The notes under the pieces are model-generated. The model was given only the letters and a program-made list of their open reading frames with translations. It ran no database searches and was not told where the DNA came from. Of a stretch of DNA of 64,000 nucleotides, positions 28,496-28,900 are shown in pieces (the first letter of the stretch is position 1; every line of letters begins with the position of its first letter). The stretch is from Escherichia coli (GTDB lineage: Bacteria; Pseudomonadota; Gammaproteobacteria; Enterobacterales; Enterobacteriaceae): NCBI RefSeq assembly GCF_046105845.1, contig NZ_CP151004.1; one strand, given 5' to 3'. Both the position numbers and the translations under genes were made by a program.

Positions 28496-28525
28496 TTGAC
28501 AAAATGTGGCATGGATCACTATAAT
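28496..28525 (+). promoter_or_regulatory. Candidate distal sigma70 promoter of the metY operon
   Basis: TTGACA (28496-28501), 18-bp spacer, TATAAT (28520-28525). Confidence 0.55.
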
Positions 28526-28573
28526 GCCTGCAGATTTTACGTCCCGTCTCGGTACACCAAATCCCAGCAGTAT

Positions 28574-28602
28574 TTGCATTTTTTACCCAAAACGAGTAGA
28601 AT
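28574..28602 (+). promoter_or_regulatory. Candidate proximal sigma70 promoter of metY
   Basis: TTGCAT (28574-28579), 17-bp spacer, TAGAAT (28597-28602); about 15 nt upstream of the mature tRNA 5' end. Confidence 0.55.
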
Positions 28603-28617
28603 TTGCCACGTTTCAGG

Positions 28618-28694
28618 CGCGGGGTGGAGCAGCCTGGTAGCTCGTCGGGCTCATAACCCGAAGGTCGTCGGTTCAAATCCGGCCCCCGCAACCA
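28618..28694 (+). tRNA. metY: Initiator tRNA-fMet (CAU anticodon), 77 nt
   Basis: cgcggggtggagcagcctggtagctcgtcgggctcataacccgaaggtcgtcggttcaaatccggcccccgcaacca: CAT anticodon in ctcataa loop, three G-C pairs in anticodon stem, 5' C mismatch typical of initiator tRNA. Confidence 0.95.
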
Positions 28695-28816
28695 CTTTCC
28701 CTTAGAGTCCTTTTTCAAATATACTGTGAAGACTTCGGCCTTCGTAGTGGGATTTGAAAAAATCCTTCTGGAAAGTGCTCCAGACCGCAGTTGCGGTTAT
28801 AGGGTTCAGTTATATA

Positions 28817-28842
28817 AAGCCCCGATTTATCGGGGTTTTTTG
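28817..28842 (+). terminator. Intrinsic terminator/attenuator between metY and rimP
   Basis: aaagccccgatttatcggggttttttg; a second weaker hairpin gggctttaggcccttttttt at 28864-28883. Confidence 0.65.
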
Positions 28843-28900
28843 TTATCTGACTACAGAATAACTGGGCTTTAGGCCCTTTTTTTATGTCTTGGGGGTGGGC

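Follow-up and report, generated by a model that had tools for sequence, protein, structure and literature searches.

Promoters, a processing hairpin and tandem terminators in the control region of the Escherichia coli metY–rimP–nusA–infB operon

Positions 28496–28900 of the Escherichia coli DNA analysed here (contig NZ_CP151004.1; the window is the whole stretch of 64,000 nucleotides, numbered from its first letter) are the control region of the metY–rimP–nusA–infB operon. This control region is already known in detail, and the first-pass annotation, which was made from the sequence alone, is correct but ordinary. The best mechanism, to which we assign a probability of about 0.88 with a putative feedback by NusA included, is that transcripts from three promoters, P-1, P0 and P2, would meet leaky tandem terminators before they reach rimP. 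What is established here or in the cited data is how the elements are ordered, that they are identical with mapped ones, that they are conserved and that transcript coverage drops at the first terminator, t1. The elements are as follows, in the order in which they occur.

28496–28525, plus strand: promoter P-1, with −35 TTGACA at 28496–28501, an 18-nt spacer and −10 TATAAT at 28520–28525.
28536–28567, plus strand: fossil of the 3′ end and trailer of tRNA-Leu(GAG) (leuU), lying inside the leader of the P-1 transcript, in the spacer between P-1 and P0.
28574–28602, plus strand: promoter P0, with −35 TTGCAT at 28574–28579, a 17-nt spacer and −10 TAGAAT at 28597–28602.
28618–28694, plus strand: metY, the initiator tRNA-fMet gene, tRNA-Met(CAT) (ARAGORN; Rfam tRNA, 61 bits; RefSeq annotation).
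28694–28735, plus strand: internal promoter P2, with −10 TATACT at 28720–28725 and a start near A 28732.
28711–28761, plus strand: long hairpin cut by RNase III to release the tRNA (minimum-energy fold, 20 pairs).
28726–28872, plus strand: CDS115, an open reading frame of 48 codons in the ORF list, with a GTG start and a UAG stop in the loop of t2.
28768–28783 and 28784–28797, plus strand: two small hairpins (minimum-energy fold).
28801–28810, plus strand: conserved box AGGGUYCAGU, nearly invariant in the 101 leaders compared and in upper case in the RF01770 consensus.
28816–28844, plus strand: terminator t1, with stem AAAGCCCCGA / UCGGGGUUUU (28816–28839), loop UUUA and U-tract UUUUUUGUU.
28864–28883, plus strand: terminator t2, with a GGGCU/GGCCC stem at 28864–28876 followed by U7 at 28877–28883.
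28884–28903, plus strand: translation start region of rimP, with a G-rich Shine–Dalgarno-like sequence, GGGGGUGGG, at 28891–28899 and TTG at 28901–28903.
28901–29353, plus strand: rimP coding sequence, 150 codons (ORF list; RefSeq annotation).
29381–30868, plus strand: nusA, downstream of rimP.
30893–33565, plus strand: infB, downstream of nusA.

The identity of the locus follows from its matches among sequenced genomes. The stretch 28300–29400 is matched in 5419–5425 of 5426 complete E. coli genomes, with at least 99% identity in 5404, and the features beneath the match are tRNA-Met, rimP and nusA. The alignment with K-12 MG1655 contains no insertions or deletions and three base differences (window 28312–28918), so that one coordinate map holds (K-12 position equals 3346907 minus the window coordinate) and metY falls at 3318213–3318289 and the start of rimP at 3318006. 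The locus is the same as the K-12 metY–rimP (yhbC/p15a)–nusA–infB control region, with its promoters P-1, P0 and P2, terminators t1 and t2, and RNase III sites. Single bases nevertheless differ: 28511, in the P-1 spacer, is A in the window and in strain MRE600 but G in K-12, while 28479 is G in the window and A in K-12. Within the tRNA, position 46 (window 28664) is G in the window, the tRNA-fMet1 type found in B strains, whereas K-12 has A46.

Comparative statements below draw on a pattern scan that used one genome per species and yielded at least 120 loci (L002–L121 analysed), including Vibrio, Rheinheimera, Morganella and Thorsellia. Both terminators stand in the same place after metY in at least 120 gammaproteobacterial genomes, and an exact initiator tRNA 3′ end lies 106–147 nt 5′ of t1 at 105 of the 120 loci (among the matches listed). 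The alignment comprises 101 distinct leaders, counted as 101 genera and drawn from the matches listed. Because the scan pattern fixed the stem cores of t1 and t2, this set provides no covariation evidence for those two stems.

The first-pass annotation had placed TTGACA-18-TATAAT and TTGCAT-17-TAGAAT upstream of the initiator tRNA. Both motifs are present as described and are the published promoters P-1 and P0, and the tRNA gene that it set between promoters and hairpins is metY, at 28618–28694. The core sequences of P-1, P0 and P2, mapped by primer extension, are printed in Brandi et al. 2019 (PMC6511841); they fall at 28493–28536 (P-1, no mismatches), 28571–28612 (P0, one mismatch) and 28694–28735 (P2, no mismatches). 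P-1 and P0 are two sigma-70 promoters driving metY. In promoter scoring P-1 reaches 12/12, and the 64-kb window contains one perfect TTGACA-N16–18-TATAAT, where shuffled sequences predict 0.04. A GC-rich discriminator ahead of a +1 adenine has been described for P-1 (PMC6511841); placed on the window, this is GCCTGC at 28526–28531 with the start site A at 28532. P0 scores 9/12 in the scan, which reads it as TTTGCA-18-TAGAAT; we take its −35 element to be TTGCAT because the polymorphic base of P0 sits immediately 3′ of the −35 element (PMC6511841). A distance of 15 nt separates the end of its −10 element from the 5′ end of the mature tRNA, and a counterpart of P0, TTGCA-N17-TAgtAT, is kept between leuU and metY across the Enterobacterales. 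The third promoter, P2, has a −10 element, TATACT, that is nearly invariant in the alignment of 101 leaders among the matches listed, and the primer used for the rimP fusion of Adams 2021 begins at 28732, the P2 start.

The two metY promoters appear to differ in age. The segment that separates them, 28536–28567, aligns with the real leuU at 24815–24845 with a local alignment score of 19, against 8.5 ± 1.5 for shuffled sequences, of which 2 in 2000 reach 19, and it also aligns with the intact leuU genes found directly 5′ of metY in other genera. In at least 56 loci among the matches listed, a complete tRNA-Leu(GAG) gene stands 48–91 nt 5′ of metY; loci checked by name include Pantoea, Erwinia, Serratia, Tatumella, Dickeya, Hafnia and Edwardsiella, and leuU likewise adjoins metY in Vibrio, Rheinheimera and Morganella. 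At such leuU-adjacent loci P0 is the only promoter between the two tRNA genes. The E. coli window has leuU at 24751–24837, 3.8 kb from metY, with yhbX (a putative hydrolase) and argG between them, and among the matches listed the leuU–metY gap measures 1.8–5.9 kb where argG is present. A P-1-like promoter occurs in 21 sequences (20 loci and the window), all 21 with argG next door, and neither argG nor P-1 is found in any of the 56 leuU-adjacent loci (both counts among the matches listed). The tRNA 3′ end is repeated directly on either side of the argG segment (24815–24845 and 28536–28567), as in a tRNA-gene-targeted insertion; the annotation between leuU and metY shows yhbX and argG only, with no integrase or mobility gene. 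Since P-1 and argG occur together and are absent from the leuU-adjacent loci, P0 looks ancestral and P-1 appears, on comparison of sequences, to be a young promoter that arose with or after the insertion of argG at the leuU 3′ end, between leuU and metY. As to whether the −10 element of P-1 was itself derived from leuU, the similarity 5′ of 28536 is too weak in the alignment to say. We found no paper treating argG, metY and leuU together in the literature searched, and older literature may contain one. One other E. coli locus in the set, that of strain E69 (L062), appears to differ from the window: a scripted search of the 9.4 kb 5′ of metY found neither a leuU 3′ end nor yhbX, which could reflect a rearrangement or an insertion.

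Downstream of the tRNA lies a processing element. An RNase III site from published RNA-seq, 3318176, corresponds to window 28731 and falls in the 5′ arm of the 28711–28761 hairpin, giving a stem of about 20 bp with a mapped cut inside it, as is typical of hairpins processed by RNase III. According to the published RNase III mapping the product of this cut nearly coincides with the P2 transcript, and two RNase III sites are placed in the region by PMC6511841. Of the 101 leaders among the matches listed, 100 form one hairpin of 15 bp or more in this segment; pairing in the lower stem, which is nearly invariant, reaches 91%, while the apex varies freely in sequence and keeps its folding (89 distinct apical sequences, median z −3.0). 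Of the two small hairpins that follow, 28784–28797 is 90% paired in the same leaders, with compensatory changes at four of its five pairs, and 28768–28783 is 71% paired. P2 and the RNase III hairpin are further means by which tRNA output is uncoupled from expression of rimP–nusA–infB. All of the elements named in the first-pass annotation are real, but it missed these two, between metY and t1.

The same part of the leader carries CDS115, and one alternative is that this frame is translated, with a ribosome following the polymerase and melting t1 and t2, as in attenuation of the pyrBI type. The open reading frame does exist and spans both terminators, a property shared with pyrBI-type attenuators, and CDS115 was called in PIRT-Seq 2025 (PMC12350097), a transposon translation-reporter screen whose authors suggest a rimP–nusA leader. 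That call, however, consists of one insertion about 14 nt into the frame, and validation by western blot failed (PMC12350097). The GTG at 28726 lies inside the hairpin stem and precedes the RNase III cut at 28731 as well as the P2 start at 28732, so that P2 transcripts and RNase III-processed transcripts lack the start of CDS115, a departure from pyrBI-type attenuators; no Shine–Dalgarno sequence is seen by eye. A start codon is absent from the frame in 34 of the 101 leaders among the matches listed, and the stop falls in the t2 loop in about 37 of them, with about 58 reading through t2, so that neither end is conserved as pyrBI-type attenuation would have it. Such conservation of the peptide as is apparent coincides with conserved RNA elements. 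Leader-peptide attenuation is therefore extremely unlikely. CDS115 was also considered as a conserved coding gene and rejected, its start, frame and stop not being conserved in the 101 leaders among the matches listed.

The two successive hairpin and T-run structures that had been noticed before rimP are confirmed by the terminator scan and by an Rfam match, and they are the published t1 and t2, placed 5′ of rimP by PMC6511841. Both have the form of an intrinsic (Rho-independent) terminator, a GC-rich stem–loop directly abutting a U-tract. The stem of t1 has 10 pairs (five GC) and is followed by a U6GUU tract, with a hairpin energy of −14.1 kcal/mol; t2 has five pairs (four GC), a U7 tract and −7.4 kcal/mol. 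Terminator-like sites are not enriched in the surrounding 2.5-kb region (5 against 2.6 ± 1.6 in shuffles). Together, t1 and t2 match RF01770, the ‘Gammaproteobacteria rimP leader’, at 102 bits against a curated cutoff of 47 (E = 1.7e-17), and the pair is therefore not a product of chance. The match covers model positions 1–102 of 102 at window 28783–28883 and contains the tandem CCCg..cGGG and GGGc..gCCC hairpins, each with its U run, directly 5′ of rimP–nusA–infB, with the last U at 28883 and the rimP TTG at 28901. The family shares the two hairpins, their U-tracts and the upstream AGGGU-CAG box with the window, which differs in a t2 loop one base shorter than the consensus and otherwise in nothing substantial. 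Naville and Gautheret 2010 (PMC2965389) described the GGGc..gCCC hairpin with its U-stretch as the most widespread attenuator, to which several Gammaproteobacteria add a second terminator upstream with the inverse CCCg..cGGG motif; the former is t2 and the latter t1. Two further Rfam matches were dismissed as chance, both lying below threshold and overlapping the terminator hairpins: STnc430 (minus strand, 28808–28961; 26.6 bits against 47, E = 0.33) and RsmY (19 bits against 57). In a symbiont, Pantoea sp. Nvir (L054), and in Thorsellia anophelis (L096), the sequences flanking t1 are perfectly complementary, so that t1 caps a hairpin of about 30 bp and about 26 bp, respectively; t2 is predicted to form freely in both.

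Between the small hairpins and t1 lies the AGGGUYCAGU box, whose near-invariance spans the Enterobacterales and Vibrio (among the matches listed), and which in folding models could pair with either the 5′ or the 3′ arm of t2. In the minimum-energy fold, AGGGUUCAGUUAU (28801–28813) is joined to AUAACUGGGCUUU (28858–28870) in a helix that encloses t1 and competes with t2. It may be asked, then, whether the terminators form a coupled switch, in which the box and ACUGGGCU (28861–28868, the end of the spacer and the 5′ arm of t2) pair around t1 and so disarm t2 for a polymerase that has escaped t1; the leader would then hold one regulated switch and not two independent leaky stops. Formation of this helix instead of t2 in the minimum-energy leader fold speaks for such coupling, as do local energies near balance (−29.4 kcal/mol for the helix, −27.4 kcal/mol for the alternative, with probabilities of about 0.63 and 0.36). 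Nine core pairs are possible in 89–100% of the 101 leaders among the matches listed, compared with about 60% after a shift of the partners by one column; no other reason is known for the near-invariance of the box, and a potential anti-terminator in the rimP leader is mentioned by Naville and Gautheret. That anti-terminator, however, was assigned to the upstream terminator and not to t2 (PMC2965389). No pair changes on both sides in the 101 leaders among the matches listed, the only change being C–G to U–G, and both strands are conserved in any case, the 3′ strand as part of t2. Dominance also differs by genus in the predictions: t2 is the favoured structure in Tatumella, Rosenbergiella, Rheinheimera, Thorsellia and others, and in some genera an upstream segment pairs with the bases that directly follow the t1 U-tract, or the box pairs with the t2 3′ arm. 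Taken with these points, a coupled switch is quite unlikely, and leaky tandem termination is the reading that we carry forward.

Transcript data, like the literature on the operon, lend indirect support to attenuation in vivo. The sharpest drop in DirectRNA-seq coverage falls at window 28842, the end of the t1 U-tract and seven bases beyond the GC core of t1. The drop fits a strong stop at t1. For t2, the published data searched contain no 3′ end, Dar 2018 (PLoS Genet) giving the name of the operon and nothing further, and the Term-seq calls of Adams 2021 that were examined have none in the leader. Counted in 800-nt windows without bicyclomycin, coverage is 4269 upstream and 196 downstream (Adams 2021), a fall of 95% that is a mixture of termination, tRNA abundance and RNA decay, since the windows include the tRNA. 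The same position, 3318065 on the minus strand of K-12, stands in the Rho-region table of Adams 2021, and with bicyclomycin the values become 3527 upstream and 481 downstream (Rho score 2.97, p = 1.3e-38).

These data raise the question of whether Rho contributes, that is, whether some of the termination in the leader or early in rimP is Rho-dependent and not purely intrinsic. The listing of 3318065 as a Rho termination region and the roughly threefold shift in read-through with bicyclomycin, from 196/4269 to 481/3527, would suggest so. Yet 3318065 sits exactly on a canonical hairpin and U-tract, and bicyclomycin perturbs transcription globally and may change the availability of NusA. A fusion carrying the rimP 5′ untranslated region and open reading frame, moreover, fell and did not rise in rhoR66S, for which the authors consider indirect effects. 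A part for Rho is thus doubtful. A purely intrinsic model in which NusA acts alone may nonetheless be too simple, because bicyclomycin raises read-through, even though the fusion fell in the rho mutant. The apparent Rho sensitivity of a canonical intrinsic terminator, with the bicyclomycin effect and the mutant fusion pointing in opposite directions, is an observation in its own right.

A further proposal concerns the terminated leader itself, running from about 28732 to t1 or t2, which might be a functional small RNA whose hairpins serve mainly as its 3′ end and as a handle for protein binding. In a review, the rimP leader is counted among attenuator-derived RNAs associated with ProQ in Salmonella, and the leader is conserved in sequence more strongly than terminators require. 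Against this, the Term-seq calls of Adams 2021 that were examined, for two conditions, leave the interval 3311708–3318213 without a 3′ end, so that a stable terminated leader RNA is not prominent in those data, and the literature searched reports no target or phenotype. A small-RNA function, which would in any case be compatible with attenuation, is very improbable.

The terminators lead directly into the translation start of rimP. The TTG that had been taken as its probable start is the one annotated by RefSeq, at 28901, and equals the K-12 start at 3318006; among the matches listed it is kept in all but two of the 101 leaders. Positions 28884–28915, which run from the t2 U-tract into the first codons of rimP, are almost invariant in the 101 leaders among the matches listed. 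In a further model pairing, the 3′ arm of t2, GCCCUU (28873–28878), could pair with GGGGGU (28891–28896), an interaction that would hide the ribosome binding site; the bases concerned are invariant in all of the leaders compared.

Placed in order, the elements suggest how the leaky tandem terminators would operate. P-1 and P0 drive metY, directly after which come P2 and the RNase III hairpin; cleavage by RNase III frees the tRNA and leaves an RNA that begins almost where the P2 transcript does. All three kinds of transcript then reach t1, a strong hairpin, followed by t2, a weak hairpin of 4–5 bp with a perfect U7, before the TTG of rimP. Most transcripts would stop at t1 or t2, so that tRNA output would exceed mRNA output, and the fraction that reads through would set the expression of rimP–nusA–infB. 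From the literature, NusA would raise termination at t1 and t2 and thereby limit its own synthesis, and t2 would make a separate contribution. The proposal in the first-pass annotation that partial termination separates tRNA output from rimP–nusA–infB expression is accordingly well supported, each of its parts matching published work on this exact sequence.

Feedback by NusA onto the tandem attenuators is probable from published work. Transcript levels of the operon rise when NusA-dependent termination is reduced (PMC6511841), NusA has been proposed as the effector of the rimP leader (PMC2965389), and in Bacillus subtilis NusA controls its own synthesis by stimulating termination in the leader of its own transcript (Mondal et al. 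2016). The B. subtilis ylxS(rimP)–nusA leader resembles that of E. coli in having a weak hairpin of the GGGc..gCCC type with a U-tract before rimP–nusA. It differs in having a single terminator and in lacking the tRNA gene, the RNase III hairpin and the second, upstream terminator, all of which are found in E. coli. NusA-stimulated termination is a feature described for B. subtilis (Mondal et al. 2016), whereas a dependence of the E. coli sites on NusA is what we infer.

Two of the side results carry implications of their own. The outcome for CDS115 cautions against annotating the open reading frame as a gene. If the coupled switch were true, read-through at t1 would license read-through at t2, with the balance set by NusA or by some other factor. 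For the operon as a whole, the region represents textbook control of a mixed tRNA–mRNA operon, a picture to which the present confirmation brings no addition: it governs the ratio of one initiator tRNA gene to three core factors, RimP, NusA and IF2.
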